From the IMG/VR virus record IMGVR_UViG_3300030333_002703, positions 1 through 64,000 of that record: a stretch of DNA of 64,000 bases; one strand, given 5' to 3'. Source of the DNA: a virus. The translations under genes and the position numbers were made by a program. Below are positions 1,450 through 40,390 of the stretch, one piece after another. How positions within the stretch are numbered: position 1 is the stretch's first letter; the number at the start of each line of letters is the position of its first letter. Under the pieces are notes generated by a model. It worked only from the letters and a program-made list of their open reading frames with translations, searched no databases and was not told the origin of the DNA.

Positions 1450-4431
1450 ATGACGGACCCGTTTGAGCAGGCGTTCCAGTCAGTTCGTAAGAGACAAAGT
1501 ACGTTACATGATTGGGATGATGATGCCATTGAAGATATCGGTCTCCCTCCTAAACCTCACCCTCAACATGGTGGTTATTCTGCTTTAGACCACAGCCTGC
1601 AAAATATCATTCTTCAAGCACGACCCGAAGCAGAAAAATTAGTTGAACAATGGGGAGAAAAAGTTCCATCTTGGATGGGATTAAATGCTGATGATTTCCA
1701 TGTTGTCACTTTACCCGGACATTTGGCTCATGAGGATTATGGTGGCGGTGAACGATACACTGGTCTAGATAGAACTGCCTTACAATCAAAAAGGAGAAAA
1801 AAATTGGAGGAGGGTGCTGACAGACCTGCGCCCCAACCATTCAAAACTCGTAGTGAAATGGCGGATTACCATAATATGCATGAATCAAGTCCAAGTGAAA
1901 CTTATTCTCAATCATGGATGATGGCTCCTATTCCTCACGCATTGGCAACTTTGATGCATCGTGGAATGCCATTTGACGAGGCTGCTAATAGAATCAAAAA
2001 TGGTTTGCATGACACCCACAAATATAAGGAAACGTACAAAGATAGCGAAGATATTCACAACTTTGTAGATGCAATTGGGAATACTCATGTTCCAATCGGA
2101 CATTTAACTATGAGAGGGCCAAGAGTATCTGAAATGTACATGACTAAATTGGGAGGAGAAGATGACAAATATGGACTTCAGCATCGAATTATGCCCAATA
2201 AAAGAATGCCTGTTATGGCAGGTTTAGGACTTGGAAGATTATTACAAGGTACTATGCTTCATAGATTAGGTTCAGATGCAATGGGTAGTGACAATCGTAC
2301 CATTTTTTCTGAAGGGCAAACTCAAGCCACTAAAACACAAGCAAAAGGCATACAACAACGTCTTAGAGAAAAATTGGAGGGAGCCGTTAGTTCAAGTCCT
2401 GCAGCAAGAGGTTTCCGAAGTCGAGCGCTTAATTTGAGAGACAAAATATCAGGCACATCTCGATTCGATGACCCAAAAAAGAAATTTGAAGAAACCATGT
2501 TTGCAGGATTGGTTCCGGGTTCTGTTGACGAACAAGATGCAACAAAAAATAGATTGATAAGCACACACGCGGCACAACTGGACTTAAGACCGGGGCCACA
2601 ATATGGAGTGGACCGAAAAACATGGGAAGATTTAGGTTGGGGAGATTTGAGACCTACATATGGCGCACAACATCATTTACCAAAAATAAACAGACCTGCA
2701 TCATCTCCGGTAAATCCTAATCCGAGTTTTAGTCAGAAGCCGTGGAGCAGAGAACATTTGCGACGACAACATCGTAATCTGTTAGAAAATAAATATGGTG
2801 AAGGTGATTGGCTCGATGATGCAGCGCGCAACTATAGACAACATGAAATGACACCCTTACCGCATGAGGTTGCAGAAGTACTGGGTTTGGACACTATGAA
2901 CCCCACATTGTCAACAACAATAGATGGTCAAAATGTTCCTTTAGCAAGATTACACGGCGACCCATACGTTTGGGATATACCAGAAGCACTAACAGAAAGA
3001 ATGAACAGACCTCAAGTAGTTCGTCAAATAAGAGATAGATTGCGTGATTTTGATGAGGGTGACAACGAATTGCCTGAAGATTATTTATATCAAACACAAT
3101 TGTCACAATGGCAACCGGGTGGTCGATTGCGGGAGAAAGAGCCATTTTTCGATGACCTTCCAGATGATATTGAAACTGGCGAACCGATGGAAATAGCGTA
3201 TCGTTTGTTAAAAAGCATCATGGATTTAGGCGCTGACGATGTTTCAACGCAACCAGAACAACCGTTACAAGCACCCGCCAATGTAATGGAAGAACCACCA
3301 AGAAAAGCATTGGGTATCATGGGTCATCATGATTGGCATGACCTTGAAAGATTCGATGACAAGATTGGAGAATGGATTGACATACACGGTATGCCAACTC
3401 ACATTGTATCGGATGGAAGCAGCGGCACAGGTGCAATGGCATCACAATGGGCGCTGGACAATGACATCCCAATTATTACTCACAAACCCAACTTCCGTGG
3501 TGGCAACCGATTCACTGCACCCGCACAAAGTCGGCAACGGATTGTCAATAGTTCTGACCATATTCTTGCATTCCCATCCATCAATGGTAGTGGTACAATG
3601 GAAGGTATCACAATGGCAAGGCAAGCGGGCAAACCAGTTCATTTGCATTACATTGAACACCCACATGATACGCCCATTAGCGAAGTAGGCACAGCCGAAG
3701 AACGAGAAAGACAAAGTCCGTGGTTGTTGGAACCAACGCCTGAACGCACATCACCTGAACCCGAAGTGCCACAAAGAACTCGCAGACAAGTGGGTGCAGC
3801 GCGCGGTCATCGCGGGCGACGTGATGACAATGTTGAAACGGGCGAGCCAATGGATATCTGGTCTCGTATGTTGAAAGAGGAACAAGGTGAGTGGGTTCCC
3901 GAAGAGCAACGTATGTCCGATGATGAATTGACTCACTTGCTAACATTCCCTGACTTACCTGAAGAAGTACGCGAAGATGTATTGCGAGAGATTCAACGTC
4001 GTCAAAATATCAATACAGGCGAACCAATGGATTTGTCATACCGTTTGTTGAAAGAAAGTATGATGGGAACAAAAGGTTGGCCCGAAGAAGAAGATGAAGA
4101 TGTATGTTGTAAAAATGCCAAAGCACATTACCGAGAAGTAGCAAATAATTCACCAGCAAAAACTTTCTTAGGTGGATGGAATAGTCCTAATGACCAGTAT
4201 ATGGAATGTGCCGAGTTTGAAATGTATCTCCGTGATGAAATCGAAGGTCTCCGAGATATGGCATCCATTCCAATGGTCGCTGACGCAATTACAGAATTAG
4301 AATCAGTATTAGACAATTGGGAACATTGTGATGAATACGATTTTAATGAATATGAAGAATTAAGACCTGAAGGTAGCGAAATCTTTACCGCAGGAGAACC
4401 TATGGACTTAGCGTGGAGGATGTTCAAATGA
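1450..4431 (+). CDS. 993-aa tagged polyprotein: possible GNAT-like domain, SLOG (YspA/DUF2493-like) domain, small helical and Cys-containing domains
   Basis: Five tag copies (N-term, 3172, 3835, 4012, C-term); SLOG pattern at 3301-3651 (GIMGHHDW, IVSDGSSGTGAMA, SDHILAFP..GSGT..GI..A...GKPV). Confidence 0.75.
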   Translation: MTDPFEQAFQSVRKRQSTLHDWDDDAIEDIGLPPKPHPQHGGYSALDHSLQNIILQARPEAEKLVEQWGEKVPSWMGLNADDFHVVTLPGHLAHEDYGGGERYTGLDRTALQSKRRKKLEEGADRPAPQPFKTRSEMADYHNMHESSPSETYSQSWMMAPIPHALATLMHRGMPFDEAANRIKNGLHDTHKYKETYKDSEDIHNFVDAIGNTHVPIGHLTMRGPRVSEMYMTKLGGEDDKYGLQHRIMPNKRMPVMAGLGLGRLLQGTMLHRLGSDAMGSDNRTIFSEGQTQATKTQAKGIQQRLREKLEGAVSSSPAARGFRSRALNLRDKISGTSRFDDPKKKFEETMFAGLVPGSVDEQDATKNRLISTHAAQLDLRPGPQYGVDRKTWEDLGWGDLRPTYGAQHHLPKINRPASSPVNPNPSFSQKPWSREHLRRQHRNLLENKYGEGDWLDDAARNYRQHEMTPLPHEVAEVLGLDTMNPTLSTTIDGQNVPLARLHGDPYVWDIPEALTERMNRPQVVRQIRDRLRDFDEGDNELPEDYLYQTQLSQWQPGGRLREKEPFFDDLPDDIETGEPMEIAYRLLKSIMDLGADDVSTQPEQPLQAPANVMEEPPRKALGIMGHHDWHDLERFDDKIGEWIDIHGMPTHIVSDGSSGTGAMASQWALDNDIPIITHKPNFRGGNRFTAPAQSRQRIVNSSDHILAFPSINGSGTMEGITMARQAGKPVHLHYIEHPHDTPISEVGTAEERERQSPWLLEPTPERTSPEPEVPQRTRRQVGAARGHRGRRDDNVETGEPMDIWSRMLKEEQGEWVPEEQRMSDDELTHLLTFPDLPEEVREDVLREIQRRQNINTGEPMDLSYRLLKESMMGTKGWPEEEDEDVCCKNAKAHYREVANNSPAKTFLGGWNSPNDQYMECAEFEMYLRDEIEGLRDMASIPMVADAITELESVLDNWEHCDEYDFNEYEELRPEGSEIFTAGEPMDLAWRMFK

Positions 4432-6089
4432 ATTGGTGGGAATTATTGAAACAATATAGCGTCGATGATGATTGGGAAGATTTTGACCCCGCCCTTCATG
4501 ATGTGAAAGAGTATTTGGCAGGTGTAGAAGGTCCACACATTAGTCCATATGAAGATGTAGAGAGAGCGACAGCAGGAGACATCATCGAAGATGCGCTACG
4601 GTCTGAAAAAGAATCGCGTGGGCAAGGTGGTGCAGGTCCACCACGTGGTCCCGGTGAAGACAGACCTGCACGTGGGCAATCGGCTTCCGTACCAATTAAA
4701 CCAAGAACAGATATGGGGTATCGTAGAGGAACAGGCAGTGAACCAAGTCGCGGATATATTCGACCACGAAATACACCATTGCCACCGCCGCGAGAAAATA
4801 CAGATAGAGAACAATTCAATTATTCACGTGTGCCGCGACGTATTTTGATGCCGGGTGAAGACGCTCGTGGTAATATCCAAGAGAGCGCTCGAAATATGCG
4901 TTGGCTTGAACCACCTGCACCGGGTTCAGATGAAAGTGCTATTGATGCAGCCGTTGAGTCAATAATGGGTCGTGGTGGTGTAACTGAGTTTGGTGATTTG
5001 GTCACTCACCCCGGTTCATTGATGACTGAAAGCGACCTCGCAGACAAATATCACGGTTCACCAATTCATTTAGACACTAGTGATGAGTTTGCCAATATAG
5101 CAGATTTGTTATCAGAAGATGACCTGACCCATGATGTAGCAGGTGTAATGTCAACTGGTGAGAAATATCCAGTCGAGTTCCAAGAGATAGCCGCTGAATT
5201 ACAAGATGACCCAGATGCTCCCACACCTCCTTGGAGTGTAGATGCAATGGAAGAGGCCATTCGTTCAGGTAAGGTAACACCTGAAGAATTAGAACTGTTC
5301 ATCAATCCTGAAAATCCTGACAGACTAACCACTCGTTCAACTATTGGAATGGACCCAATGACCGCAATGGAACTTGGATTGCCCCCATTTGGCACAGATG
5401 ATACGCCTACTGCTGAACGTCGAGTGCATATTGACCGTGACCCACAAGTGCATGAAATTATGGAAACAATAGAGGACCATCCAGATGATTTCGATATGGA
5501 AAGAATTATGGAAGGCGCACATCTTGGCCCAGAACATGATATTGCAGAGCCAACCTTTGCAGGCATTCCTTTCAGAGAAGATACTGGATTTACAATGGGT
5601 GAGCCAATGACACCGTTCAATGCAGCATGGACTTTGCTGAAATTCAATACTGGTGCAGATTACGGCCAACAGTCTGCATTAGATGATGATTTATCCAATC
5701 CGACAAGGCATTGGGATGACCCATCCATGAATGACTTACGTGACCAAGATTTCATGGAATACATGGATGAGTTGTATCAACGAAAAGTAGGAGGCGACCT
5801 TGAATCCGAAGCAATTTGGAATTGGTACACCAAAAATCATCCTGAAATAACAAATCAGATTGAAGAAACATACAGTGTTCCCGGTATGGAACCCGGCGCA
5901 CCAGAAGAAGGTGGCGTTGAAAGTGGCGGTAGTAATCGAGTGAAAGTAACATCCAGTCCCAGCGCACAATTGACTGCCGCTGCCAATCATCATGGATTTG
6001 AGTTTGATGAGTTCGGTAATTTAAGCAGGATAGAATCACCGACGGAATCTCCAAAATCAAAGTCAATTATGGATTTAGGTAGTGAATAG
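4428..6089 (+). CDS. Acidic, low-complexity tagged polyprotein
   Basis: ATGA overlap with upstream stop, GGAGG RBS; MNWWELLK start, internal GEPMTPFNAAWTLLK, C-terminal KSIMDLGSE. Confidence 0.75.
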   Translation: MNWWELLKQYSVDDDWEDFDPALHDVKEYLAGVEGPHISPYEDVERATAGDIIEDALRSEKESRGQGGAGPPRGPGEDRPARGQSASVPIKPRTDMGYRRGTGSEPSRGYIRPRNTPLPPPRENTDREQFNYSRVPRRILMPGEDARGNIQESARNMRWLEPPAPGSDESAIDAAVESIMGRGGVTEFGDLVTHPGSLMTESDLADKYHGSPIHLDTSDEFANIADLLSEDDLTHDVAGVMSTGEKYPVEFQEIAAELQDDPDAPTPPWSVDAMEEAIRSGKVTPEELELFINPENPDRLTTRSTIGMDPMTAMELGLPPFGTDDTPTAERRVHIDRDPQVHEIMETIEDHPDDFDMERIMEGAHLGPEHDIAEPTFAGIPFREDTGFTMGEPMTPFNAAWTLLKFNTGADYGQQSALDDDLSNPTRHWDDPSMNDLRDQDFMEYMDELYQRKVGGDLESEAIWNWYTKNHPEITNQIEETYSVPGMEPGAPEEGGVESGGSNRVKVTSSPSAQLTAAANHHGFEFDEFGNLSRIESPTESPKSKSIMDLGSE

Positions 6090-6140: not shown

Positions 6141-6980
6141 GTGGCTGATTTCCGCGTGTATGAGGTTGGACCTCGTGATGGTCTACAAAATGCTTCATTC
6201 ACTACAACCACTGATGACAAAATACAACTCATTCGGTCACTTGCGAATGCAGGTTTAACCAATATGGAAGTGGGTTCGTTTGTACATCCCAAATTAGTTC
6301 CATCAATGGCAGATAGCGCAGAAGTGTTTGAAGAAATTGCAGACCTTGGTGATTTTTCTGTATTGGTTCCAAATGAGAAAGGATTAGACCGAGCGATTCG
6401 TGCAGGTGTTGAAAATTTCAACATTTTCTTTTCACCTTCCGAATCTTTCAATGCGCGAAACTTAAGACGTACACGTAAAGAAGCAATGATTGAGTATTTA
6501 CGAATGCTTGACAAAGTTCCTGACAGCAAAGTTCGAGTTTACCTTTCTGTGATATTTGGATGCCCATTTGAAGGAAAAATATCCGACGACATCATTTACG
6601 ATTCTATTTTGGAAGCCTCGCTTCTAGGAGATACAATTGTGCTATGTGATACCATTGGCACAGCAAATGAAAATGAAATAAACAAAATATGTGAATATGC
6701 TGAAGATTTCAAAGCGAACTTCGCTTTACATCTTCATCATAAACCTGAAAATGAAGAACGAGCATTGAACTTAATTGAAACTGCCATAGCCGGTGGAATC
6801 ACTGAAATTGATGCAAGCATTGGCGGAATGGGTGGATGTCCTTTCATCCCCGGTTCCAGTGGAAATGTAAGTACTGAAAAACTTCTAGACCTACCCGGTT
6901 TAGATTGTGGCCTTGATTATGATTCCTTGTTACCCGCACTTGAGTGGGTGCAACATAGGAAGAACAAGGTGACATTATGA
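6141..6980 (+). CDS. hmgL: Hydroxymethylglutaryl-CoA lyase (DRE-TIM family), auxiliary metabolic gene
   Basis: EVGPRDGLQN, GSFVHPK, FGCPFEG, DTIG, HLH, GGMGGCPF..GSSGNVSTE motifs. Confidence 0.9.
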   Translation: MADFRVYEVGPRDGLQNASFTTTTDDKIQLIRSLANAGLTNMEVGSFVHPKLVPSMADSAEVFEEIADLGDFSVLVPNEKGLDRAIRAGVENFNIFFSPSESFNARNLRRTRKEAMIEYLRMLDKVPDSKVRVYLSVIFGCPFEGKISDDIIYDSILEASLLGDTIVLCDTIGTANENEINKICEYAEDFKANFALHLHHKPENEERALNLIETAIAGGITEIDASIGGMGGCPFIPGSSGNVSTEKLLDLPGLDCGLDYDSLLPALEWVQHRKNKVTL

Positions 6981-13716: not shown

Positions 13717-14144
13717 AACAAAACTTTGTAGGTATTCCGGTATCGGAATTGATGTGTGTGGACTTACCCACAGCATATGTATTGACAGAAGAAGGACCAT
13801 TGCATGAAAATGAATTGGATGTATTTTTCAATACATTGCAGGTAAGTGTAGGTGTATGGGCTGATTTCTTGACCCGTATTACAGATAGTCCTGAAAATTG
13901 GGCGAAGCCTCGCCATGAGTTTGTAGATATGTTACAAGAAAAAATGTATCAGGTATTCCAAGAAGATGACCCGATGTTAGCGTGGCCGTTGCGTCAAAAA
14001 TTAGCGCTAATGGTTGACCAATTTGATGAAATGGCTGATGAAATGGCGCGACCATTCACAGGTCCACATACAATTCGGGACTTTTACCACAATCTAGCCA
14101 GTCGAGTACGAGCAACATTTGAGGAAATAATGAACGGTGAGTAA
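13713..14144 (+). CDS. Hypothetical protein
   Basis: 143-aa ORF with ATGA overlap and GGAGGTG RBS. Confidence 0.75.
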   Translation: MKQNFVGIPVSELMCVDLPTAYVLTEEGPLHENELDVFFNTLQVSVGVWADFLTRITDSPENWAKPRHEFVDMLQEKMYQVFQEDDPMLAWPLRQKLALMVDQFDEMADEMARPFTGPHTIRDFYHNLASRVRATFEEIMNGE

Positions 14145-14856
14145 TATGAATCCAATGGAGGTCGCTTGGTTGGTGTTAAAAGCCCCGTTGGAAGGGTATG
14201 ACTCAAACCTCACTGATGAGGAGAATACTGCTCGTCGCCAACCTCAACAACCTACCATTACTGATTTCACCAGATACACTAGACCTCAATTAGAACAAAT
14301 GGTTGTCATGTTCCAAAATGAATTGATGCGTCGTGGACACGCATCTCTTTCATCTGAAATATCAATTCCAAATATGGACAGATATATGAGTGGTGAAGGA
14401 GGGTATCAACGAGAAGAACTTGATGCCGCACCTACAATACCAACTGATGAACTAGGCGAAGCGATTCTGACAGAAATGACGCCTGAAGAACACGCACAAG
14501 AGATACAGAGATTAATGACGCAATTGATGAGTGGGGAAACATTGTCACCTGAAGAATTACTATTTTTACAACAAGATGGCCCAGAAACACAACAACAAGC
14601 ACGTGACGCTATTTGGAGTAATTATGATGCAGTTGAATCAACTACACCAACAGCAACAGTTCGCGCAGGACTACCGGCAACTACACCAACAGCAACAGAT
14701 ATCCCTACTGATGATGCGGTACGGCAGATACTCAATAGTCATGGTATCGAACATCATCTAATTGAACCTCACCACATAAGGCAATATCAAGGATTTTATC
14801 GAATGATGAGGCGGCATCCAACAGAAGAAGAAATAGATGCACACATAGGTGATTAA
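14137..14856 (+). CDS. Tagged protein with PIP-box-like motif
   Basis: MNPMEVAWLVLK|A; QPTITDF at 14248-14268. Confidence 0.75.
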   Translation: MSNMNPMEVAWLVLKAPLEGYDSNLTDEENTARRQPQQPTITDFTRYTRPQLEQMVVMFQNELMRRGHASLSSEISIPNMDRYMSGEGGYQREELDAAPTIPTDELGEAILTEMTPEEHAQEIQRLMTQLMSGETLSPEELLFLQQDGPETQQQARDAIWSNYDAVESTTPTATVRAGLPATTPTATDIPTDDAVRQILNSHGIEHHLIEPHHIRQYQGFYRMMRRHPTEEEIDAHIGD

Positions 14857-15868: not shown

Positions 15869-17238
15869 CACAAACAACTGGTAGCGATACCCGAATGTAC
15901 AATCCTCGGTCAGAATCCGAGGAGTTCATGTATGCAGATGACAAAGAAGTCTTTGGTGAAGGCGACCCCGAACATCGTGATTTGGAAGCCCAGAAAAAGA
16001 AAGAAGAGCGGGAAGAGCGGGAACGCAAATGGGCAGGTCTGCACCATTTGAAAATCAAAACTGCGAAACCGGCAATGGAAGAACCATTTGCTGAATCTAC
16101 ACCAATGGAACAACAAGGTGAATTATCTGATTTGACCGGCCCATCGGGTAGTATGGGTGAAAATCTAGATGTAGCCACAGGCGCACGAACTGGCACAGGT
16201 TCTGCATTGGGTGAAATGCCACCTCAATTACCGGCTATGGGTATTTTCGGTCAAACCAAATCTGAACCAATGGAATCCGCATGGGATGATTTGATTATCA
16301 AGGTCTTAGGCGACCCCGTTGGGACATCGACATTGGAATCTGCTGACCGTGCTATGCGAAGTGGCATTGGACCCGGTGGAGCCAAAGGGCGTAAAGGCCA
16401 TCGTGTGAAACCATTCCCACGCCCAATTGGTGGTCGTTCACCTTGGGCGGCATCGAAACGACGTGCTTCTGTTCATCAGCGTTTATTCGGAAATATCAAA
16501 GGGCGTGGCGGAAAGAGTATTCGTTCCAAATCTAAAACAGGTATGATGCGCCAACCGTATGCATTGAGTCCTCACCATTTGGGTGTTGGTGTAATGTGGG
16601 GTAAGCCACGCCCGGGTCGTTTGGAAGACCCCGGTTCATACATTTCGTGGCTGGGTCGTCAATCTGCATATCGTGGTGCAGGTGGTTCTGGTGTCATGTT
16701 ACCATATACACCTCACGCCCCACGTGAAAGATTGGGGCAACTTGGATTCCCCGGCGCACAAGGTTCTGGTCGTCAGCGAATGTTACCCGGTGCATCTCAA
16801 TTGGCGCGAGAAGGTCCACGTCGTGCAACACGTGGCCCACCACGACCAAAAGGAATGGGTCGCGGTATTCCTTCACCATTGTCGCCACGACCAATGGCAT
16901 CTCCATTAATGGCGAAATCTGAATTGGAAGAATTGGTAGAAGTATCGAAAGCATATGTTCGTCAATTGGGGCCGGGTTTGAGCCACATAGATATGGGCGA
17001 CTTCCGCGAATTATTACGTGAACTCAAACACCTACTTGCCAAATTACCTCGTAAAAGTTTGATGGGTATTGCAGGTGGTGGTAGTCGTAGTGAAGGTCAA
17101 GTTAATGCTCCTGCAAATGGCCCGCAAAAAACTTCACGTAATGAAGGGGCGACAGAAACTGACCCTGAAGATGACCCACGATATTGGGGCGCAGACCCAT
17201 CACAATTGACACGACGTGGCGGTGTACACCATGCATGA
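15865..17238 (+). CDS. Protein with acidic N-terminus, tag and very basic Arg/Gly/Pro-rich core (putative internal head protein)
   Basis: KSEPMESAWDDLIIK then a R/K/G/P-rich segment ending MAK|SE. Confidence 0.7.
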   Translation: MTQTTGSDTRMYNPRSESEEFMYADDKEVFGEGDPEHRDLEAQKKKEEREERERKWAGLHHLKIKTAKPAMEEPFAESTPMEQQGELSDLTGPSGSMGENLDVATGARTGTGSALGEMPPQLPAMGIFGQTKSEPMESAWDDLIIKVLGDPVGTSTLESADRAMRSGIGPGGAKGRKGHRVKPFPRPIGGRSPWAASKRRASVHQRLFGNIKGRGGKSIRSKSKTGMMRQPYALSPHHLGVGVMWGKPRPGRLEDPGSYISWLGRQSAYRGAGGSGVMLPYTPHAPRERLGQLGFPGAQGSGRQRMLPGASQLAREGPRRATRGPPRPKGMGRGIPSPLSPRPMASPLMAKSELEELVEVSKAYVRQLGPGLSHIDMGDFRELLRELKHLLAKLPRKSLMGIAGGGSRSEGQVNAPANGPQKTSRNEGATETDPEDDPRYWGADPSQLTRRGGVHHA

Positions 17239-23455: not shown

Positions 23456-25383
23456 TGGCAGAAAAAGGAAGGATTGGCCGGTTTTTGGAAAGTTTGACAA
23501 AACCGTTCAAGAGGAGAGAGACACCTGCACCAACAATGCCGCTATGGAAAAGCGGTATTCAGGAGCCGGTATTGGTTCAGGGCATTACCATTCCTGCGTT
23601 GTACGCAACAGTGCAGGAATCGGTAATTTTGCGAACCACAATTAACACATTGACACAAGAGATTTTCAGACGCGGATTGTTCTGGGAAAAGAAGTTCAAT
23701 AAGAAATGTGTACAATGTGATGACGAGTTCCAACACAATGTGGAAGTGTGTGATACTTGTGGAGGCGAAGTACGTGACCCAGACCCGGATGAAGTAGTGT
23801 ATCCAAAGTGGTTATTTGATGAGCGAACAGAACAAGACCAGACATTCATGGATGTTATGCGCGAAATTGAATGGGATTTGAATATCGTAGATGATGCATT
23901 CCTTGTCATTCAGAAAGAATACTACCTCGATGAAGAAAGTGGTGACATTGAGTTTTCGCGGGTAAAACAGATTACCCGAGGCGACCCTACATTCATGCGT
24001 TTAATTGCAGATAAACGTGGTGTTCGTGGAGGGCGATACAAGGTATGTCCTATTCACCGAAGTAAAACATACAGTCATTCAGAAGATTACAAAGAATGTG
24101 ATACTTGTGGTCTGCCATTACAGGATGTTCACTATGTGAATACGGCAGGTAGTGGTAAAACCCAGTATTATTTGGATGGTGAAGTGCTTCACATATCCAA
24201 GTTCAATCCATCTAAATTGTATGGTCGTTCTCCTGTCGCAACTATGTGGCGTCAAGCCATGACATTGACTGCAATGGACAATTACATGTACCTCATGTAC
24301 TCCAAAAGACGAGTACCACGTGGCATTCTTGCGATTACAACTGACAACATTCAATCTACGGCATCGTTCTGGAAAGGTGTCGAAGAAAAGATGGAACGTG
24401 ACCCACATTACGTTCCCAAAGTGGGTGTCGAATCTGCATCGGGTCGTGGGCGTGTCGAATGGGTCAAGTTCATGGACACAATGGATGAGATGCAATACAG
24501 TGCGGTTCGTGATGAACTACGTCAGCGTATATCATCGTTCTATGGTGTGTCAAATATCTTCATGATGGACTCCGGTAAAGGTGGAGGTCTATCCAATGAG
24601 GGTATGCAAATCCTTGTGACCAATCGCGCAGTTGAATATGGTCAGAAGATTTACACACGTGACTTATTCCCACGATTACTCAAACTCATGGGTGTCAATG
24701 ATTGGAAATTGACACTGTATCCAAATGAAGAAGAAGATGAGGTAACACGCCTACGTCGTGATGAGATGGAAGTCAACATTGCACAACGTATGATGCAACT
24801 TGGATTCAAACCAGAACTCAAGGATGAAGGGGAGCGCGACATTCGTTTCACCTATAAGACGCCCCCTCCACCACCCCCCGCGCAGCCGGGTGGCGCACCC
24901 CCCGGAGGCGCACCTCCCCCCGGAGGAGGCATGATGCCACCCGGAGGCGCACCCCCACCTCCACCAATGGGTCGTGGTGGTAATCCCATGATGCGGCAAG
25001 GAATGAATCCCGGTCTACCACCCGGTGGTATGCCCGCTGGCCCACCCGGTGGTATGCCCGCTGGCGCACCTCCAATGGGTGGCGCACCACCTCCAATGCC
25101 CGGTGGTATGGCAATAGCAAATCCAGCAATGGCGAAATCGGAACTGCCTCATCTTGGTGGTGGTGGTAGTGATTCAGAAAAGACCGATGGTTCACGACCT
25201 AATCGTGTAGCCGGTGTTAAGGATGTACGGACACAAAGTGGTTCACCAAAAGGCACTACACATCAACGTGGTCATGATAAATCTCCAATTGAACAAGCAT
25301 TAGAATCTATCCAATCCGCTAAGGAATCTGCGACCGACCCATTGGGCGATAAAGGTAAGGATTCAGGGCTTTATGGGCGATAG
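23452..25383 (+). CDS. Portal protein with Zn-ribbon insertions and Pro/Gly/Met-rich C-terminal tail
   Basis: Position after TerL; LYGRSPV, PRGIL, ISSFYGV portal motifs; CxxC pairs. Confidence 0.85.
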   Translation: MMAEKGRIGRFLESLTKPFKRRETPAPTMPLWKSGIQEPVLVQGITIPALYATVQESVILRTTINTLTQEIFRRGLFWEKKFNKKCVQCDDEFQHNVEVCDTCGGEVRDPDPDEVVYPKWLFDERTEQDQTFMDVMREIEWDLNIVDDAFLVIQKEYYLDEESGDIEFSRVKQITRGDPTFMRLIADKRGVRGGRYKVCPIHRSKTYSHSEDYKECDTCGLPLQDVHYVNTAGSGKTQYYLDGEVLHISKFNPSKLYGRSPVATMWRQAMTLTAMDNYMYLMYSKRRVPRGILAITTDNIQSTASFWKGVEEKMERDPHYVPKVGVESASGRGRVEWVKFMDTMDEMQYSAVRDELRQRISSFYGVSNIFMMDSGKGGGLSNEGMQILVTNRAVEYGQKIYTRDLFPRLLKLMGVNDWKLTLYPNEEEDEVTRLRRDEMEVNIAQRMMQLGFKPELKDEGERDIRFTYKTPPPPPPAQPGGAPPGGAPPPGGGMMPPGGAPPPPPMGRGGNPMMRQGMNPGLPPGGMPAGPPGGMPAGAPPMGGAPPPMPGGMAIANPAMAKSELPHLGGGGSDSEKTDGSRPNRVAGVKDVRTQSGSPKGTTHQRGHDKSPIEQALESIQSAKESATDPLGDKGKDSGLYGR

Positions 25384-26588: not shown

Positions 26589-29500
26589 ATGGCAGTTGAT
26601 ACACCGTATGACTTCCATCTGCGGAATAAACATGAGTTATATCGCTCATTGTGTGATGGATTGGAACTAGAAAACGCTGCGGCAAATTATTTGTTCTCCA
26701 AATCAAATGCGATACGACACAATGTATTCCAACAATCTTCTGAAGAACAGGCATTGAATTATGCTGCAGATTCTATTCTCAAACGTGCCAAAAAAGATTG
26801 GCGGTCAGAAGAAGAAAAAAAATATAGAGAAGAATATCATCGAAAACAAACTAGTGAACAATTTGGATTGTCCGATGAAGATTGGATTCCACGTCTTGCA
26901 CAATTTACAGATGGTCATAAAGACCCACGCCATTCACATTCTTCATGGCCTACAATGGGTGATGTGGACCCAACAATTGCATACGGTGGTATATCACCTT
27001 GGGATTTATCTGTATTGACTGCCAATAGTGAATGGGGTAGCCCTGAATGGTTGAGAGCATTGTCGGATGTATGGGAACCACAAGGAAATGACGATGACCC
27101 GGAACACCATTACAATTGGATTGAAAATCAAATCAAAGAACATGAAGGGCATCATGCATTAGGATTCCACAACAAGGACCATTACCTAGGTCCAATAGAA
27201 GGTGATGCACCATCCGACCTATACGAGAAACATTTTGCACGTTGGAAGGCTGAAGCAGCCCCACCCGAAGTTTTGGATATGAGTTTAGGCGACCAAAAAC
27301 AAGCACATTTAGACTTATACAAACGTGTATGGGCAGGTAAAGAGCGCGACCCATTGGCAGATATAAGTGATACTGGTTCGCATCAATTGGGATTCCTTGG
27401 ATATGCATTAGGTCTAGAATGGCTCACACCTAGCCAACGTGATGATGTTATCAATCACATTAATCAAAATGGTGTAACAAGAGAGATTCCTCATGTATCT
27501 CATGGATGGATGAATCGTAATTGGATGGGCCGTTTTCTAGCAGGTGAAGCCACACAACGATTACGTGACCCTAGCCATGCTGGAAGTAGTTTAACTGCCA
27601 CCCATCATGGATTTGAAACTGATGACCAAAAAGAACACCATAATGCAAGACGATTACATGATGCGATGTTGGATACATTGGTCTATAGTGAAGATAATCC
27701 AGTGACAGGTGCGAAAAAAGGAGAGCCTGTTCATGGTTATTGGGCAGAAGATGAACAAGGGGATACGCGATGGGTTCATAGTCACGATACAGATTCTGGT
27801 GCTGCCCCTGCGTATAGATTGCGAGGTATGGATGATGCAAAGTTCGATAGTCGTTTGATGTCTGACCAGCAAATGCGAAGAATTGGTGCAGAATCTCTAC
27901 AAGACCATATTCTTTCCAAACCTGAAAATCGTGTGAAACGTAGTGTGAAAGTATCAGGTAAAACAACACCTCAAAATGTTGAGTTTGGTGTCATGCCTCG
28001 ATTATTGAGATTGGAAGAAGGTGGGCATGATAATGTACATCGTGGTAATTTCGCATTCAAAAGTACTGAAAAAAGTACCAATGAGGCATTGTTGGAACAT
28101 CACAACAAACCCATTTGGGACCAAGAACTACAACATTGGCTTGACACAGGTGTAATTGATGAAAACCAAGCCACAGCCATGAAAGCCCGCCGAAAGGAAT
28201 TGCATGAACATTACAATCGACGTAGGCAAGTGCAAAATGGAACTGGTGCATATCTGAATATGTATCATTTCATGGGGGGAGATGAAAATGACATACGAAT
28301 GTCACCATTTGCGCGATTCATTATGATGCATCATGCTCAAGGTGGTGGCGGAATGGATTCAATGAATATGTTTTCAGAATTGAACCATATGTTCCACCAT
28401 GATGTATGGGGTAATCCAGATGGTGGATTATTCACTATTGGTGATGCTGTAACATCAGGTTGGGAACCAATGAAATTGGAAGAAGGTCAATCACCAATGG
28501 ATTTCCCTGAAAACATTTGGCCTAGAGCGCGTGGTATGGAAGGAGATGACCGAGAAGCCGGTCAAATACGTGAAGGTTCATCATTCAAAGGTAAAGGAAT
28601 CACACTACGACGTAATCAAATACGTGATGGTATGGCATCATTGATAGGTGCGCTTCAAGACCAACCTATAGATACATGGCGTGATGCAGGTACATCTCCA
28701 CTTCTCAATTTAGCACATGGTGGCAATACTGATATTCACCAACAATTGATGATTTCGTCTGACCCGCATTTCCATGAAATGATACGTGATGGTATGAAAG
28801 GATTGAAAATTGGAAAATTAAATCCATACAAAGATACACCGGGTGGTAGTGGACTCAACAATTTATACAATGAAGCACGTCTTACAATACATCATGCATC
28901 TGATAAACTGGGTAAAGCAGGTATGAAGAATCTTGCATTACTAGCCGCATTATGGGGTAGATGGAATGAAAATCCTGCTGAAGCGCAATTGGCTAGTGGC
29001 CCACCTCCATTTTTAGAAACTGGTAAAATGAACGAAACGGCGTTTACTCAAGATTTACTCCCCAAAAAATTGATGGCTTTAGCACGAAGAGAAGGTACGC
29101 ATCTCATTCCCGGTCATCCGGGCGATACAGATTTACAATCGCGGGTTAAGCAGTTCTTGTTGCATAGTAATTTAATGCGCCAATTGAATGTTGAAACACC
29201 ATTGGCTTTGGAATCACCTGCGAGTGATGTGTATGAATCGGACCGAGGAGTACCAACATTAAGCGCTCAATTCCCCGGCGGTGGCCCAGCACCCGAAGGT
29301 ATTACACCTACATCATGGGGGCCACATCCCGGTGAAGAAGAATCTGACCCAGATATTGGATGGTTAGACCCTAACATTCCACGTGGAAAATGGTTCTTCC
29401 ATAACAAAGATAAAGACGTATCTCACAATACATATCTTCCTTTGGAAGTCAATATAGGTGGAGGTAAAACACAAATGATAACACCTACATTTGATTTTCA

Positions 29501-32303
29501 AGACCATGCACATCAGGCTTTAGACAATGGAGAAATGGATTGTCCTGTATGTGGTGGCGATGGATACATTGACCCAGAAGATATGGGGGCTGAAATACCA
29601 GATGCTCGTGATATGATTAAGAGCATTATGGATTTGGGAGCAGGTAATGATGATAATGACAACCGAGTAGAATGTCCAAATTGTCACGGTGCAAAGAAAA
29701 TGCAATTACCATCTACATTCAATAGGGATAGTGTTCATGTACAACCTCATCACATTGAACATAAAGAACGTGAATTAACACAACAATTGGAAGATTGGTT
29801 AGCGACTCCACCGGAAGAACGTGACCCTGAAAAAGGAGATGCATGGTTCGATGAAATCGAAAGACAATTGACCAATATACCTTCAATTCATCCACTAGGT
29901 GGTGAAGGGCAATACTATAATAAAATGTCACGATTTGGTAGCAAGTTCTTATCTACACAAAATCTAGTTCGGAATGTAGCGGCATCATTGGCTGATAAAG
30001 TCCGAGCGCAATTTGAATCCGATGGATTGGGCGACCCATTCGGCCCTGATGAAAATGGTGATTGGTCACAAGCCCATGTGAATGCTATTGCATTGTGGTC
30101 TCACGCAAACGAATGGGCATTACGCGCACAACCACGACAACGTGATTGGCAAAACGACCAGATTTCAGGATACACAGGTCAGGAACCACGAGGAACGTAT
30201 TTGGATGAAAATGGGAAAGAGAGAAATGAGAAAACATGGGCGCATACATTCAAGCAACATGATGATACTGAAGCACCAGCGGCAGGTTCAGCGATTCATT
30301 ATCCGGGTTTTAGTAGTGATGGAGGTAATATCCAAAATGAGCCAATGTCATTACCATTGAGTATCTACAATAGTATGGGCCATCGAATGCGTCATGGTTG
30401 GGGTATGACACCAACATATGGTATATCATTCGATAATATGGGTACGCCTACTGTATTGCATAATGAGGGTAAGGCATCCACCCAACGTAACAAATATCTT
30501 AATGTTCCATTGGATGAATTACAACAGGTATTCCCTGAAATGCAAACAATGTCATCAGCACATCCATCTGCACCATCAGCCGAGGATAGACCTGAATCTC
30601 AAAAATTGAATGATATGGGAGACAGTATGGCATTCAGAATGAGTGAAGATGAACCTGCCGTATCTGACATTCTCAAAGCATTGACCAATCCAGACCTGCT
30701 CAAAGAAGATGCGCGGGTAAAACCTGTCAAAGCAGCACATCGTATTTTTGACCTTGATGACCTCAAACAACTACGTGGATTCAGTGATGATTGGGTGGTT
30801 AGTACATGGATTAAGGGTCATCGTGGTATTGCACGTAAAGAAGGTGACAAAGTATCTGTTCAATATGCTGATGGTTCATATTGCCCATTGACTGAAGATG
30901 CGAAGAAAGGACTACGAGAAGCACACGATGATGATTTCGTCATGGATGTTATCGTAGGGAAGAACAAGCGTATTACAGTCATTGATTTGTTGGAACATGA
31001 TGGTAGAGAATTGTATGAAGAGCCACTCAAAGACCGATTAACCAAATTAAGGTCTAACTTTGAAAGCACTGACGATGTACATATGCCCGCCCCATTCAAT
31101 ACACGACGTACTGACGACGAAGGATTATCAACTGCTATCAGTAGTTTAGCAGATGAGGAAAATGATGGGTTCTTACTACGTGATGCGATTTCAACTTACA
31201 TGAAAGGTGAACCACGACATCCGAAATGGGTGTTGCTACGTAAGCAAAAGGAAGTTGATGTCATTATTCTTGACCGACGTGGCCGTGGCCCTTACACATA
31301 TCAATTGGGTATAGGCCCAATCAATCCTGAAAAGGGTGAGTCACTTGGCAACCGAGCAGTACAACGTGGTGATAAATGGTTCATGGATGTAGGCACAATT
31401 ACGCGGGAATCCAAAGCATTCAATGAAGGTGATTATGTGCAAGTATCTGTATCAAGTGTATCTCACAAAGAGCGTGATGGTGAAGATGTGTACGATTTAC
31501 AAACTCGGAGTATCATAGGTGAGACAAGTACCGAGGCCACAGATAGTGTAGATACATTGTGTCTTTTGACTAAATCATACGCTCCATTGATTTGGCCGCA
31601 TGATGTTGTCGTTAATCGTAGTGATGTACAAGTATTGTTGCACGGATTAAATGATACTGTTATCTATAAGATGAACAAATGGGACAATGGTTGGGCATTA
31701 CATCAACCAATTAGCCTATTAGGTGATTTATCCAATAGTGATTACAGCATTCATTTGTCTGAAAGCCTACGCCCATTTTGGGAACCGATTGTTGGTATGA
31801 CCTTGAAAGGTCTCATCAAGGTAGATTACAACCCACGTGATACGAAAGACAAAACACGTGATGAGAAAGAAGAAGAGGAAGAGGAACATTCCCACGAATC
31901 TGGATTCAAACTACCAAAACCAAAACGAATGGATGAAGAACAGATTCTTAAACCTGAAATGACCAAGATGGTTGTGCAAGCGTTGACGTTGATTGATGAT
32001 GTTATCTCTAAAGAAAAAGCCACATGGACTGGCGCACGTGGAATGGGTATCGGATTGGGTACACCAGATAGCGCACCACGTGGACCTACTGAAATTACAC
32101 AAGATGTCAATACATTGGATTACGATATGAGGCAACGTGATGATGAAAAAACCGAGAAGCCTAGAAAGAAACCTAAGAAAATGCAAGGTGAGCCTCATCC
32201 AATGACTGCTTCTGTTACTACAGATGAGGGTGAAAAGGGCAAAATTAGGGTCACAAACGAAGAAGCGGCCTTAGAAATGGAGCCTGAAAATCCCTTTGAG
32301 TAG
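26589..32303 (+). CDS. 1904-aa protein with DnaJ-type Zn finger and degenerate ATP-dependent DNA ligase-like C-terminal region
   Basis: CPVCGGDG..CPNCHG; ligase-like IDLL...PL.DRL..L, DGFLLRD..S.YMKG.PRH.KWVLL, then OB-like region; KxDGxR replaced by WIKGHR. Confidence 0.75.
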   Translation: MAVDTPYDFHLRNKHELYRSLCDGLELENAAANYLFSKSNAIRHNVFQQSSEEQALNYAADSILKRAKKDWRSEEEKKYREEYHRKQTSEQFGLSDEDWIPRLAQFTDGHKDPRHSHSSWPTMGDVDPTIAYGGISPWDLSVLTANSEWGSPEWLRALSDVWEPQGNDDDPEHHYNWIENQIKEHEGHHALGFHNKDHYLGPIEGDAPSDLYEKHFARWKAEAAPPEVLDMSLGDQKQAHLDLYKRVWAGKERDPLADISDTGSHQLGFLGYALGLEWLTPSQRDDVINHINQNGVTREIPHVSHGWMNRNWMGRFLAGEATQRLRDPSHAGSSLTATHHGFETDDQKEHHNARRLHDAMLDTLVYSEDNPVTGAKKGEPVHGYWAEDEQGDTRWVHSHDTDSGAAPAYRLRGMDDAKFDSRLMSDQQMRRIGAESLQDHILSKPENRVKRSVKVSGKTTPQNVEFGVMPRLLRLEEGGHDNVHRGNFAFKSTEKSTNEALLEHHNKPIWDQELQHWLDTGVIDENQATAMKARRKELHEHYNRRRQVQNGTGAYLNMYHFMGGDENDIRMSPFARFIMMHHAQGGGGMDSMNMFSELNHMFHHDVWGNPDGGLFTIGDAVTSGWEPMKLEEGQSPMDFPENIWPRARGMEGDDREAGQIREGSSFKGKGITLRRNQIRDGMASLIGALQDQPIDTWRDAGTSPLLNLAHGGNTDIHQQLMISSDPHFHEMIRDGMKGLKIGKLNPYKDTPGGSGLNNLYNEARLTIHHASDKLGKAGMKNLALLAALWGRWNENPAEAQLASGPPPFLETGKMNETAFTQDLLPKKLMALARREGTHLIPGHPGDTDLQSRVKQFLLHSNLMRQLNVETPLALESPASDVYESDRGVPTLSAQFPGGGPAPEGITPTSWGPHPGEEESDPDIGWLDPNIPRGKWFFHNKDKDVSHNTYLPLEVNIGGGKTQMITPTFDFQDHAHQALDNGEMDCPVCGGDGYIDPEDMGAEIPDARDMIKSIMDLGAGNDDNDNRVECPNCHGAKKMQLPSTFNRDSVHVQPHHIEHKERELTQQLEDWLATPPEERDPEKGDAWFDEIERQLTNIPSIHPLGGEGQYYNKMSRFGSKFLSTQNLVRNVAASLADKVRAQFESDGLGDPFGPDENGDWSQAHVNAIALWSHANEWALRAQPRQRDWQNDQISGYTGQEPRGTYLDENGKERNEKTWAHTFKQHDDTEAPAAGSAIHYPGFSSDGGNIQNEPMSLPLSIYNSMGHRMRHGWGMTPTYGISFDNMGTPTVLHNEGKASTQRNKYLNVPLDELQQVFPEMQTMSSAHPSAPSAEDRPESQKLNDMGDSMAFRMSEDEPAVSDILKALTNPDLLKEDARVKPVKAAHRIFDLDDLKQLRGFSDDWVVSTWIKGHRGIARKEGDKVSVQYADGSYCPLTEDAKKGLREAHDDDFVMDVIVGKNKRITVIDLLEHDGRELYEEPLKDRLTKLRSNFESTDDVHMPAPFNTRRTDDEGLSTAISSLADEENDGFLLRDAISTYMKGEPRHPKWVLLRKQKEVDVIILDRRGRGPYTYQLGIGPINPEKGESLGNRAVQRGDKWFMDVGTITRESKAFNEGDYVQVSVSSVSHKERDGEDVYDLQTRSIIGETSTEATDSVDTLCLLTKSYAPLIWPHDVVVNRSDVQVLLHGLNDTVIYKMNKWDNGWALHQPISLLGDLSNSDYSIHLSESLRPFWEPIVGMTLKGLIKVDYNPRDTKDKTRDEKEEEEEEHSHESGFKLPKPKRMDEEQILKPEMTKMVVQALTLIDDVISKEKATWTGARGMGIGLGTPDSAPRGPTEITQDVNTLDYDMRQRDDEKTEKPRKKPKKMQGEPHPMTASVTTDEGEKGKIRVTNEEAALEMEPENPFE

Positions 32304-35335: not shown

Positions 35336-35336
35336 G

Positions 35337-36725: not shown

Positions 36726-36735
36726 TGGTGATTGA

Positions 36736-37970: not shown

Positions 37971-37975
37971 TTTGA

Positions 37976-39577
37976 ATGCCCACAGTATTTCAACCCGGTG
38001 AACGCGCACCAGAACCTATTGACCCAGATGCAGTCATCTATACGACCGCACAGAAAGTCGGTGAACTACTACAGATTCCACCCGCAGACCCGGTGGATTT
38101 AGCAGGTAACGCATCTGCATCTGATACATCTGTCGATATATCACCCATTGATTTTCGGAATACTGGATTTGAAGTAGGGGATGAAATTGAGATTGAAAGT
38201 GATGCAACATTGGTTGAGACACGTACAATTACTGCCATTACATTGAGTAGTGGCAATGCACGATTGGCATTCACAGGTGGTCTATCGTATGCACATACTA
38301 CTGCCAACAATGCCACCGTGCGTAACAATGCTATATTCACCAATGGCAAACTACGTGGTGTATCTAGAACACACGTTGAGACCTTGATTAAACGTCACCA
38401 AGACCGCATTGACAACATCTGCAATAACTCATGGCGACCTATGTTACAGGTTGCTGAATACAAGATATTTGATACTTACAAGCCATACCGACGCCGATAC
38501 TACACAGACTATGTTGGGACCACACCACTCTTATTCCGTAATGTTCAGCAGATTCTACGATTAGAGGTATGGCAAGGGCAAGATTACAAGGAATTGGCAG
38601 GTGCTGAAGTCCGATTGAAAATCATTGACCATTCAGCATTGGCAAGTGATGGTGTGTATCTGTGTCCGGGTGGTGGCGGTGTATTCACTTTGAACGTGGG
38701 TACAGATAGCGATACATGGAATGCATCGTTTGACAATGCGACAACCGCACAACAACTTGCAGACCTCATCAATAAGGATGGTCGTAGAAACAAAAATGCA
38801 GTCGCGTCATCGACCAATTACACATTGGAAGATTCGTATTCATCTAGTGGTACTGTGCAAGCCAAAGTCCACAATGAGTTCTTGGCATCAGCCAATGCTG
38901 ATTACGGCATCGCACGTGTCAAAATCAGTAGTATGCGTCGAGCGGCAGGTGGCACACAATCTACTATTGCCGCATCAGACCTGACAAACATTGAGTTTAG
39001 TCAACATGGTACTGCTACTACAACATCGACAAGTGTATCTAGCACTACTGTCAATGTCGCTTCTACTGCCGATTTCGTATCGCATGGACTCATTATGGTA
39101 GGTAGTGGCACATCAGTTGAGGTCTTGTCATATACGGGTAAAACCGCGACATCATTTACAGGATGCGCCAACGTCAAAGGAACCCCATTGACGACACTGA
39201 ATACAGGTGGAACGACAGCATTCCAATACCAATTCGCCATTGACTATCAAGGTTCCACCGCAACAGGTGATGAAGCCCGATTGAAGGATTGGTGGTTTGA
39301 CCCTGAAATGGGTGTCATATATTTCAACAATTCATATCCATTCTTTGAGTGGAATGCGGTCAAAGTTACGTATGTGTATGGCGAGCGGTACGTCGAAAAG
39401 GCCATTGAGGACATCGTGACCAAGTTGGTTGCTATGGACTTGATTACGGCTGATGACCGTTCAGTTCTAATTCCCGAAGGAACCACCAACATTGACCTAG
39501 GTTCCAAGTATCAACTATTCAAGCAACAGGTTGCCGAGACCTTGCCACGATATGTGGAGGTTGTTACACTTGACTAG
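37976..39577 (+). CDS. Head-tail adaptor/neck protein with inserted beta domains
   Basis: IYTTAQKV..L, I.RHQDRID, VKVTYVYG..VEKAIEDIVTKLVA connector-like motifs; position. Confidence 0.65.
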   Translation: MPTVFQPGERAPEPIDPDAVIYTTAQKVGELLQIPPADPVDLAGNASASDTSVDISPIDFRNTGFEVGDEIEIESDATLVETRTITAITLSSGNARLAFTGGLSYAHTTANNATVRNNAIFTNGKLRGVSRTHVETLIKRHQDRIDNICNNSWRPMLQVAEYKIFDTYKPYRRRYYTDYVGTTPLLFRNVQQILRLEVWQGQDYKELAGAEVRLKIIDHSALASDGVYLCPGGGGVFTLNVGTDSDTWNASFDNATTAQQLADLINKDGRRNKNAVASSTNYTLEDSYSSSGTVQAKVHNEFLASANADYGIARVKISSMRRAAGGTQSTIAASDLTNIEFSQHGTATTTSTSVSSTTVNVASTADFVSHGLIMVGSGTSVEVLSYTGKTATSFTGCANVKGTPLTTLNTGGTTAFQYQFAIDYQGSTATGDEARLKDWWFDPEMGVIYFNNSYPFFEWNAVKVTYVYGERYVEKAIEDIVTKLVAMDLITADDRSVLIPEGTTNIDLGSKYQLFKQQVAETLPRYVEVVTLD

Positions 39578-40007
39578 TCCAATTGATTTCGCATGGGCTG
39601 TAATGAAAGCACCTATTGATTCTCACGGTTATTCAGATTTACCCCGCGATATGTTCGATGAAAATGTAGGAATAATGTCTAATCAAGAAGAGCAAGATTG
39701 GTATGATTTTATAGCGAAACTGCCTTTTGATATGGACAACGATTTGACTGATGAAGAACAACAAATGATTGTTGGTATTTTCAATAGACTGTATGAAGGT
39801 GATGCTCACATACTACACCCTGATGACGATTTTGATGCAAGGGGCATGATATTCATTGAGGATTATGGGGAAGTGCCAAAAGAAGATTACTATAATGCCG
39901 AATGGTGGTGGAATCATCCACACGGACACATCAATAGCATACGAGATGAGTATGAATCTATTGAAGAACTTCAAGCAGATTTAGACAAGGAACGAGGGGC
40001 GGTTTGA
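39570..40007 (+). CDS. Acidic tagged protein
   Basis: TTG start after GGAGG; TSPIDFAWAVMK|A. Confidence 0.7.
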   Translation: MTSPIDFAWAVMKAPIDSHGYSDLPRDMFDENVGIMSNQEEQDWYDFIAKLPFDMDNDLTDEEQQMIVGIFNRLYEGDAHILHPDDDFDARGMIFIEDYGEVPKEDYYNAEWWWNHPHGHINSIRDEYESIEELQADLDKERGAV

Positions 40008-40390
40008 TGCACCCAATTGACCACGCATGGGCCGTATTGAAAGCCAATGAAGTAGTTATTGATGGTGTCACATACGTGCCACAACAAGAACAGCCGCAAC
40101 AAGAAGAACCTGCACCTACTGGAAGTGATGTACCGTGGGCTGGTCGCACTATTGCGAATCAAGGTGGATGGAAAGATTTTGGTCGCCGTATGATGGCAGG
40201 ATTTAGAACCCGCGATGACCAAGGTAATAGAAGTACTATGATGGATAAATTACGCGGAGCAATGGAGCAACGCCAACAACAATTGTCTGCGCCCAATCCT
40301 GAAGCAGATTCACCATTAGCGACGGAAGAAGAAAAACCTAGGTCTATTATGGATTTAGTGCCAGATGAGGATGACCCCGAGGCATGGTGA
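40004..40390 (+). CDS. Tagged low-complexity protein with SIMDL motif
   Basis: MHPIDHAWAVLK|A; RSIMDLVP. Confidence 0.72.
   Translation: MMHPIDHAWAVLKANEVVIDGVTYVPQQEQPQQEEPAPTGSDVPWAGRTIANQGGWKDFGRRMMAGFRTRDDQGNRSTMMDKLRGAMEQRQQQLSAPNPEADSPLATEEEKPRSIMDLVPDEDDPEAW

Follow-up and report, generated by a model that had tools for sequence, protein, structure and literature searches.

SIMDL, a short peptide rewritten in concert among group A magroviruses, is most likely a docking motif for one shared partner

The 64,000-nt stretch of DNA analysed in this study (the window; positions 1 to 64,000 of IMG/VR record IMGVR_UViG_3300030333_002703) is from a group A magrovirus, one of the tailed viruses of marine archaea of the Poseidoniales, and encodes the pentapeptide SIMDL in five unrelated proteins. 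Comparison with relatives showed that the peptide and not the DNA is under selection, that the orthologous site is kept, and that each virus uses one uniform version of the motif, here called its dialect, the copies of which change in concert. The SIMDL-class peptide is most likely a docking motif for one shared partner. The receptor is tentatively predicted, at somewhat less than an even chance, to be a DNA sliding clamp, which could be the divergent PCNA-like clamp encoded by the virus itself or the PCNA of its host.

A six-frame scan of the whole window found exactly five copies, all on the + strand and inside long open reading frames (ORFs), in the places and contexts reported by a first-pass annotation of the sequence: KSIMDLG three times, SSIMDLV once and RSIMDLV once. 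Copy 1 (KSIMDLG, 3214-3228) is located directly 3' of a helix, GEPMEIAYRLLK (3178-3213), which abuts it and belongs to a family of helices, the tags, that recur in this genome; the 993-aa polyprotein in question (1450-4431) bears tags and a YAcAr/SLOG domain which is DprA-like in its homologues. Copy 2 (KSIMDLGSE-stop, 6063-6077) forms the C-terminus of a tagged 558-aa protein of unknown function (4413-6089), three residues before the stop. Copy 3 (SSIMDLV, 18917-18931) is found in a linker rich in Pro and Gln that precedes the conserved helical domain at the C-terminus of a 669-aa protein, also of unknown function (17216-19225), encoded two genes upstream of the large terminase. Copy 4 (KSIMDLG, 29622-29636) occupies the loop between the two CxxC pairs of a 1904-aa protein with an ATP-dependent ligase domain (26589-32303), encoded between portal and protease. 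The zinc-ribbon-like CPVC...CPNC element concerned spans 29541-29684 (residues 985-1032), and its description as a Zn finger with the motif in the loop is correct, because the motif lies between CPVC and CPNC. The match of this protein to PF01068 (E 1.4e-5) is below the cut-off, and its homologues have precomputed PF01068 hits. Copy 5 (RSIMDLVPDEDDPEAW-stop, 40343-40357) lies ten residues before the stop, in the C-terminal tail of a 128-aa protein that is tagged at its N-terminus (40004-40390).

By amino-acid composition, 0.0096 copies of SIMDL would be expected in the 20,250 coding amino acids, and it is the commonest pentapeptide of the window. Five copies had been thought unlikely to arise by chance; neither 200 shuffled proteomes, in which the commonest pentapeptide occurred two or three times, and four times in a single case, nor 2000 within-protein shuffles (mean 0.0085 copies of SIMDL, maximum 1) ever reached five, which excludes composition as an explanation of the frequency and chance as the origin of the peptide. 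Conservation had also been placed at the peptide level, and the codons bear this out. The Ser codons of copies 1-5 are AGC, TCA, AGT, AGC and TCT, so that both Ser codon families are in use, and the codons for Ile (ATC/ATT), Leu (TTA/TTG), the preceding Lys (AAA/AAG) and the following Gly (GGC/GGT/GGA) vary between copies as well.

There is a caveat to this peptide-level interpretation. GAT, TTR and ATY are used in all five in-frame copies (p ~0.004 given the codon usage of the window), and the 12-mer ATYATGGATTTR occurs seven times in the window, on the + strand only, against 0.12 expected, with two of the occurrences (5989 and 27604) lying out of frame and encoding HHGFE. These figures would suit an element that acts in the DNA or RNA, or recent copying or gene conversion, with the peptide as a by-product; chance is a further alternative. 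Such an origin is nevertheless extremely unlikely, given the two Ser codon families, the differing codons of the flanking Lys and Gly, and the relatives, which retain the peptide class with freely varying codons. Furthermore, the out-of-frame copy at 27604 is within a conserved segment of the 1904-aa protein (PHYGFESED, PYYLPGDE and similar in the orthologues), and the two out-of-frame copies represent one event, because 25 of 29 bases are common to the two sites, with a chance of about 0.06-0.1. A DNA-level motif and chance were therefore both rejected on the basis of codon variation, the codons of the relatives and the shuffle counts, and the coincidence of the 12-mer is considered unexplained but minor. 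At these two out-of-frame sites (5989-6000 and 27604-27615) the 12-mer, ATCATGGATTTG, lies in DNA that encodes A[NT]HHGFE[FT]D[ED], and both proteins concerned also bear SIMDL.

SIMDL was absent from 958 kb of related loci, and the exact pentapeptide is confined to the closest relatives (P0003, P0006, P0022/L113 and P0026). A motif of the same class, on the other hand, was found at sites 1-4 in the orthologues examined, except in the 558-aa orthologue of G001, a complete relative of 110,196 bp, which lacks the C-terminal extension bearing site 2. When all versions are aligned on the Asp, the core reads aliphatic - x - Asp/Asn - hydrophobic - (Gly or hydrophobic). Each of the 13 orthologues of the 1904-aa protein has its own version in the Zn loop, in one or two copies: single copies of GIMDLI (P0008), SIMDIL (P0010), SVFDLL (P0009) and PDLLDFF (P0012), and two copies in the form of PNLLNL and PNLLDLG (P0011), SLFDIEDE twice (P0013), TLFDYG and SLFDYG (P0015), NLFDIS and SLFDYG (P0016), LPDLFG and LPDIFS (P0014), LPDIF twice (P0017), LPNLF twice (P0018), PSLFGG and PDLFSS (P0019) or PDLFG twice (P0020). 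At site 3, the orthologues of the 669-aa protein have SSIMDLV (P0003, with 92% identity across the C-terminal part that was aligned), SSIMDLI (P0006), SSVLDLI (P0004), SRLTDMI (L001/P0005), LPDLFQ (P0007), RPDLFQ (G001), PLFTY (G004) and SLFSF (G003). Site 1, after the tag helix of the polyprotein, reads KSIMDLG (L113, P0026), KSVFDLG (P0024/L115), NFLGLG (P0023), KSLFDY (G003) or LPDLFG (G001), and the orthologue in L115 ends SSVLDLLDE-stop at site 2. For site 5, a 146-aa protein of G001 at the same map position ends QLPNLFDYEGGNNA-stop, its orthology being by synteny only. In the relatives G006 and G007 neither the N-terminal extension of the SNF2 helicase nor the Zn loop is conserved, and these genomes provide no usable orthologous positions. 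The conservation in orthologues on which the first-pass annotation had staked its interpretation is thus divided, failing for the exact pentapeptide beyond very close relatives and holding for a same-class motif at the orthologous site.

The change of letters is uniform within a genome. The dialect is SV[FL]DL in a Tara relative, KSLFD[YIL] in G003, LP[DN][LI]F in G001, and NLLDLG and DLLDFF in others. Cross-counting gave five matches to SIM[DN][LW] in the window and none in G001 or G003; 13 matches to P[DN][LI]F in G001, one in G003 and two in the window (both in a giant ORF of the tail region); and six matches to [SN]LFD[IYL] in G003, one in G001 and none in the window. The motif is enriched in both G001 (15 observed against 2.7 expected) and G003 (6 against 0.07), and the codons for its Pro, Asp, Leu and Phe residues vary freely in these genomes. 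In the Tara relative, sites 1, 2 and 4 read KSVFDLG, SSVLDLL and KSVFDLL (P0024, L115 and P0009). We infer that these three sites belong to one virus: P0024 and P0009 are each listed with 110,522 bp as the longest contig, and L115 is a separate 26,459-bp scaffold, linked to them only through its matching KSVFDLG.

The relatives also extend the list of carriers. The extreme N-terminus of the SNF2 helicase reads MSDKLPNLFN in G001 and MTNLFDIM in G003, and the linker of a DUF932 protein has TPDLFS and GGLFSI, respectively. The C-terminal tail of a small Zn-ribbon protein bears three tandem copies in G001 (LPSLF...KPDLFG...QLPNLF-stop) and ends KRKSLFDL-stop in G003, and the C-termini of two further small proteins bear the motif in G001/G003. 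Tandem copies are about 8-20 residues apart. Genomes that are uniform, codons that differ and close relatives that diverge suggest selection by one lineage-specific constraint rather than recent copying. Over-representation, codon variation, disordered or terminal placement and orthologous position, the four marks of a short linear motif (SLiM), were all found.

The local setting of the motif was described earlier as disordered-looking, in agreement with several results. AlphaFold2 (AF2) was run with eight sequences on the last 202 residues of the 669-aa protein, which hold the sole motif site modelled. In this model the motif segment has a predicted local distance difference test score (pLDDT) of 35-48 and no secondary structure, and the segment of low pLDDT (<50) comprises fragment residues 88-111, between two helical parts. 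The alignment of the 669-aa proteins has indels at the linker around copy 3. Disorder-promoting residues make up 76% of the motif flanks, compared with 61% of the background. Basic residues are common upstream (K/R 23% in the five preceding residues, background 10%) and acidic ones downstream (D/E 28% in the ten following residues, background 13%), and eight of 27 motif copies are within 15 residues of the C-terminus.

The tag helix (..A[WFY]xxLK) often stands directly before the motif, in the window as in many relatives, and this layout was found again in L113, L116-L120, G001 and G003. That the SIMDL proteins are also tagged, as was claimed earlier, is true of the 993-, 558- and 128-aa proteins and loosely of the 669-aa protein, but not of the 1904-aa protein. 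Tag-less proteins bearing the motif are numerous in the relatives, and the two sets overlap only partly, because the carriers of the early module have no tag. The tag itself, P-[IM]-[DE]-x-A-[WFY]-x-x-[LM]-K, was observed at the N-terminus or internally in about 12 proteins of the window between 508 and 40042 (for example at 3178-3213, 14143-14180, 39560-39600 and 40010-40045), and in L113, L116-L120, G001 and G003 it is very often followed by the motif after 0-5 residues.

The placement after tag helices, with Lys-Ser before the core, recalls a cleavage site for the prohead (HK97-type) protease, which would cut the tagged polyproteins and cargo at the motif; HK97 gp5 is cut at Lys|Ser. This is very improbable. 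Many copies are 0-10 residues from the C-terminus or at the extreme N-terminus, where cutting would be pointless, untagged early proteins bear the motif, and the protease-scaffold protein, the major capsid protein and the portal do not. The protease-site interpretation was rejected, since with so many copies 0-10 residues from a terminus the position does not give a processed product.

A signal for virion assembly, by which the motif would dock cargo on the capsid interior, scaffold or portal so that the carriers are packaged and co-injected, with the tag helix as part of the same system, is also improbable, although a number of observations accord with it. Four of the five carriers in the window are encoded with structural genes, including the 1904-aa protein between portal and protease; the motif comes directly after the tag helix in many relatives; and terminal placement and multiple copies fit targeting peptides. 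Carriers of the establishment or anti-defence type are found in relatives, such as the SNF2 helicase encoded near ArdA, and proteins of these types are packaged by some phages, as in the Dar system of P1. However, most carriers of the early module are untagged, and the motif is missing from most tagged proteins. The window and G001 have major capsid proteins that are 88% identical, whereas the dialects are completely different, and the motif is absent from the capsid, portal and protease-scaffold proteins. About a dozen cargo species, including proteins of 800-1900 aa, would also be many.

The proposal of the first-pass annotation, a docking motif for a common viral or host partner, fits the peptide-level selection, the disordered or terminal context, the conserved sites, the tandem copies and the uniform dialects. 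SIMDL is most likely this virus's version of a short linear docking motif, the core of which usually follows Lys/Arg-Ser and precedes a run of acidic residues. About a dozen unrelated viral proteins expose it in linkers and loops that are disordered, or at their ends, and would all dock on one receptor. If this receptor is the sliding clamp, the motif would act as a PCNA-interacting peptide (PIP) box without the Gln and tether DNA-transaction and DNA-associated proteins to clamp-loaded viral DNA, and tandem low-affinity copies would exchange on the same pocket. Several carriers are DNA enzymes, namely the SNF2 helicase, the DprA/SLOG polyprotein and the 1904-aa protein with the ligase domain; these would be among the clients tethered.

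All magroviruses have been reported to encode a clamp (PMC5434244); that of the present virus is located beyond the window. A clamp fold was recognized in a 256-aa protein encoded next to PolB in G001 and conserved in G003, G006 and G007. Its two-domain AF2 model (pLDDT 76) matched beta clamps and PCNA (3ifv, 3lx2 and 1isq, from H. volcanii, T. kodakarensis and P. furiosus) in Foldseek with E ~1e-12. It is the fold comparison only that gave a clamp, as Pfam PCNA_N had no match in G001-G003 and G006-G008, and searches of PHROGs and of PDB sequences returned no clamp name. The motif can be fitted to positions 4-8 of the PIP box, with only positions 4 and 6 matching the pattern Qxx[LIM]xx[FYW][FYW] in the window; the full pattern does not occur there, the motif having no Gln at position 1, Leu at position 7 and Gly/Val at position 8. 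Canonical PIP boxes were not found at the termini of ORFs of at least 70 aa in the window, G001, G003, G006 or G007. When the G003 clamp was co-folded, with alignment A3, with the last 45 residues of the Zn-ribbon protein from the same genome (ending KRKSLFDL), the score was 0.00, which is neither for nor against binding.

A number of points weigh against the clamp as the receptor. The motif is missing, at the termini or elsewhere, from PolB, RFC, the RadA-like ATPase, the ERCC4/Cas4-like nucleases and the exonuclease of G001, and the more distant clamp-bearing relatives G006 and G007 have no motif enrichment. The PolB tail HQPKTYW-stop is identical in G001 and G003 despite their different dialects. 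The segments of the clamp pocket (GVALSTHFL, FGPWFPEVL and the C-terminal strand) are conserved between these two genomes, so that co-evolution of clamp and motif is not visible. The C-flank is acidic here, whereas PIP motifs are usually basic on both flanks, and none of the 669-, 558- and 128-aa carriers, all of which belong to the structural module, is known to be linked to DNA.

Two observations made beside PolB concern other putative clamp ligands. A polymerase tail of the form ...LGWDL..A...[HP][QR]PK[TA]YW-stop is present in four of four genomes (G001, 67452-69788, - strand; G003, 57650-59953, + strand; G006; G007); it is distinct from the motif and may be the polymerase's own predicted clamp-binding tail. 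Directly behind PolB there is a 38-aa microprotein made of two canonical PIP-like boxes (G001, L088:7117-7233, - strand; G003, 59961, + strand), reading QKTLYDYG and QSTIWDWL in G001 and GQRKITDWL in G003, with a 31-aa version bearing RQTTLEEFGF in G006. The box QKTLYDYG is near the TLFDYG/SLFDYG dialects.

The unchanged clamp pocket and PolB tail bring forward the possibility that the motif docks on another hub, a fast-evolving viral protein or a non-clamp host protein with which it co-evolves in each lineage. Concerted dialects indicate a receptor that changes between close relatives, and many conserved early proteins diverge strongly between G001 and G003 (25-38% identity). Candidates include the viral RadA-like ATPase, SSB/RPA, the viral thermosome, the viral TFB or host RNA polymerase, and an unannotated early protein; thermosome, TFB and RadA-like ATPase are encoded by G001. 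Peptides with basic clefts as their binding sites, such as the ligands of RPA70N, SUMO-interacting motifs and the tails of T7 gp2.5 and gp4, typically have an acidic C-flank beside a hydrophobic core. Nevertheless, no candidate stands out, the divergence between G001 and G003 having given too many; no peptide-binding domain was recognized by Pfam in the scanned G001 proteins; and the motif resembles documented clamp motifs more closely in sequence than any other motif class documented. Another hub is possible but rather doubtful.

A wider scheme may also be considered, in which group A magroviruses have a private docking code: one virus-encoded receptor, about a dozen clients, and a peptide rewritten in each lineage (SIMDL, SVFDL, SLFDY, NLLDL, LPDLF), orthogonal to the PIP-PCNA system of the host. 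This is speculative and, on balance, unlikely. If true, the virus would address the host PIP-PCNA system separately through the PIP-box microprotein, proteins of the replication and structural modules would be joined to the same hub, and viral DNA transactions could be insulated from host factors and from co-infecting relatives.

The context of a group A magrovirus is given by the thermosome, the SNF2 helicase and the ATP-dependent ligase in the structural module, which are marks of this group; group A magroviruses infect Poseidoniales, and the ligase is known to sit in the magrovirus structural module (PMC5434244). The major capsid protein is 33-34% identical to its counterparts in Haloarcula tailed viruses. 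The large terminase has 193 relatives in IMG/VR, with identity of up to 94% among the best 80 of the 193. No related loci for the 993-aa protein alone were found among the viral contigs searched, and a search with alignment A5 gave nine loci in metagenome contigs and none in genome or viral contigs. For the remainder of the virus's genome, neither exact-pattern scans of viral, metagenome and genome contigs nor a megablast against phage records yielded a match. Besides PolB and the thermosome subunit, G001 encodes an RFC-like ATPase, a RadA-like ATPase, ERCC4 and Cas4-like nucleases, a methylase, ArdA, the SNF2 helicase and a TFB homologue. This TFIIB/TFB homologue (56709-57626, - strand; L087:16709-17626; PF00382, E 5.5e-38) adjoins the thermosome gene. 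At least seven small early proteins of G001 between 82 and 97 kb (L089) end ...EEE-stop (GEEE, SEEE, FEEE), which probably reflects a purine-rich ribosome-binding site that serves the overlapping gene downstream.

Other features of the window were observed in passing. An HMGL-like gene (HMG-CoA lyase/pyruvate carboxyltransferase family) is located at 6141-6980, and its G001 orthologue is 42% identical with a PF00682 match at E 1.4e-25, making it a possible auxiliary metabolic gene. Low-complexity stretches were noted at 19222-20511, in a Gln/Gly/Ala-rich 429-aa protein encoded upstream of the terminase, and at 23452-25383, where the portal is Pro/Gly/Met-rich in its C-terminal part; in G004 the orthologue of the 429-aa protein bears a PPNLFGQQ copy of the motif. 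The giant ORF of more than 5600 aa follows the tail genes and runs off the window (47186-64000), and has orthologues of 5980 aa in G001, 5100 aa in G006 and 5113 aa in G007.

No such motif was described in the magrovirus papers examined or in the abstracts listed by a search on SLiMs and sliding clamps in archaeal viruses. A SLiM that docks on a hub is of a known kind; what is new is one without the Gln, spread genome-wide over about a dozen proteins of the replication and structural modules and rewritten in concert. Much is known of short docking motifs in eukaryotes and eukaryotic viruses, but they have hardly been studied in archaeal viruses. As one motif marks about a dozen proteins of an uncultured, globally abundant virus group, it offers an interaction network that can be tested without culture. 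The uniform, lineage-specific versions appear to be a rare natural case in which motif and receptor have changed together between closely related viruses. A clamp as receptor would widen the known range of clamp-binding sequences and tie structural-module proteins to replication, as in T4; a different receptor would mean a new viral hub to be found.

Several known systems bear comparison with the magrovirus motif. The capsid targeting sequence (CTS) of T4 and the cargo-loading peptide of encapsulins are likewise short peptides common to unrelated proteins, terminal or in linkers and sometimes repeated, and the virus has the HK97 fold. Unlike these, the viral motif is also found on early replication-module proteins, no sequence similarity to them is documented, and its dialects diverge while the major capsid protein is highly conserved.

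The canonical PIP box, Qxx[LIM]xx[FY][FY], agrees with the viral motif at positions 4, 6 and 7 (aliphatic, Asp, hydrophobic). The dialects PDLLDFF and K[ST]LFDYG are near-canonical, and the motif is carried at termini or in linkers on DNA enzymes. It differs in having no Gln and usually no aromatic pair, and in its absence from the viral PolB, RFC and nucleases. Two specificities may coexist, the canonical boxes being in a separate microprotein of the same genomes.

As judged by sequence, the motif fits the 'divergent PIP' class exemplified by Spd1. The PIP-degron of Spd1 from S. pombe, IQGSLMDVGMRVRKS, binds the PCNA pocket in experiments even though neither aromatic is present and position 8 is Gly, and it cooperates with a second motif at a distance of 13 residues (PMC6881253, PMC10939359). 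Its core, S-[LI]-M-D-[VL]-G (SLMDVG in Spd1), is almost identical to that of KSIMDLG; both are disordered and have a non-aromatic residue at position 7 and Gly at position 8, and the spacing of the second Spd1 motif can be set beside the 8-20 residues or so of the viral tandem copies. Spd1 differs in its Gln at position 1 and its basic C-flank, which is a feature of the degron, the viral motif having no Gln and an acidic C-flank.

Finally, bacterial beta clamps bind QL(S/D)LF, and T4 gp45 binds the LDFL tails of gp33 and gp55 (PMC9690074). The clamp family is different, and the viral motif does not start with Gln-Leu. The LP[DN]LF dialect nevertheless matches [DSN]-L-F and DLLDFF matches L-D-F-[FL], with positions at the extreme C- or N-terminus in both systems. 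The T4 clamp joins replication to late functions, and the likeness extends to this arrangement, in which one viral clamp would serve many clients other than the polymerase.

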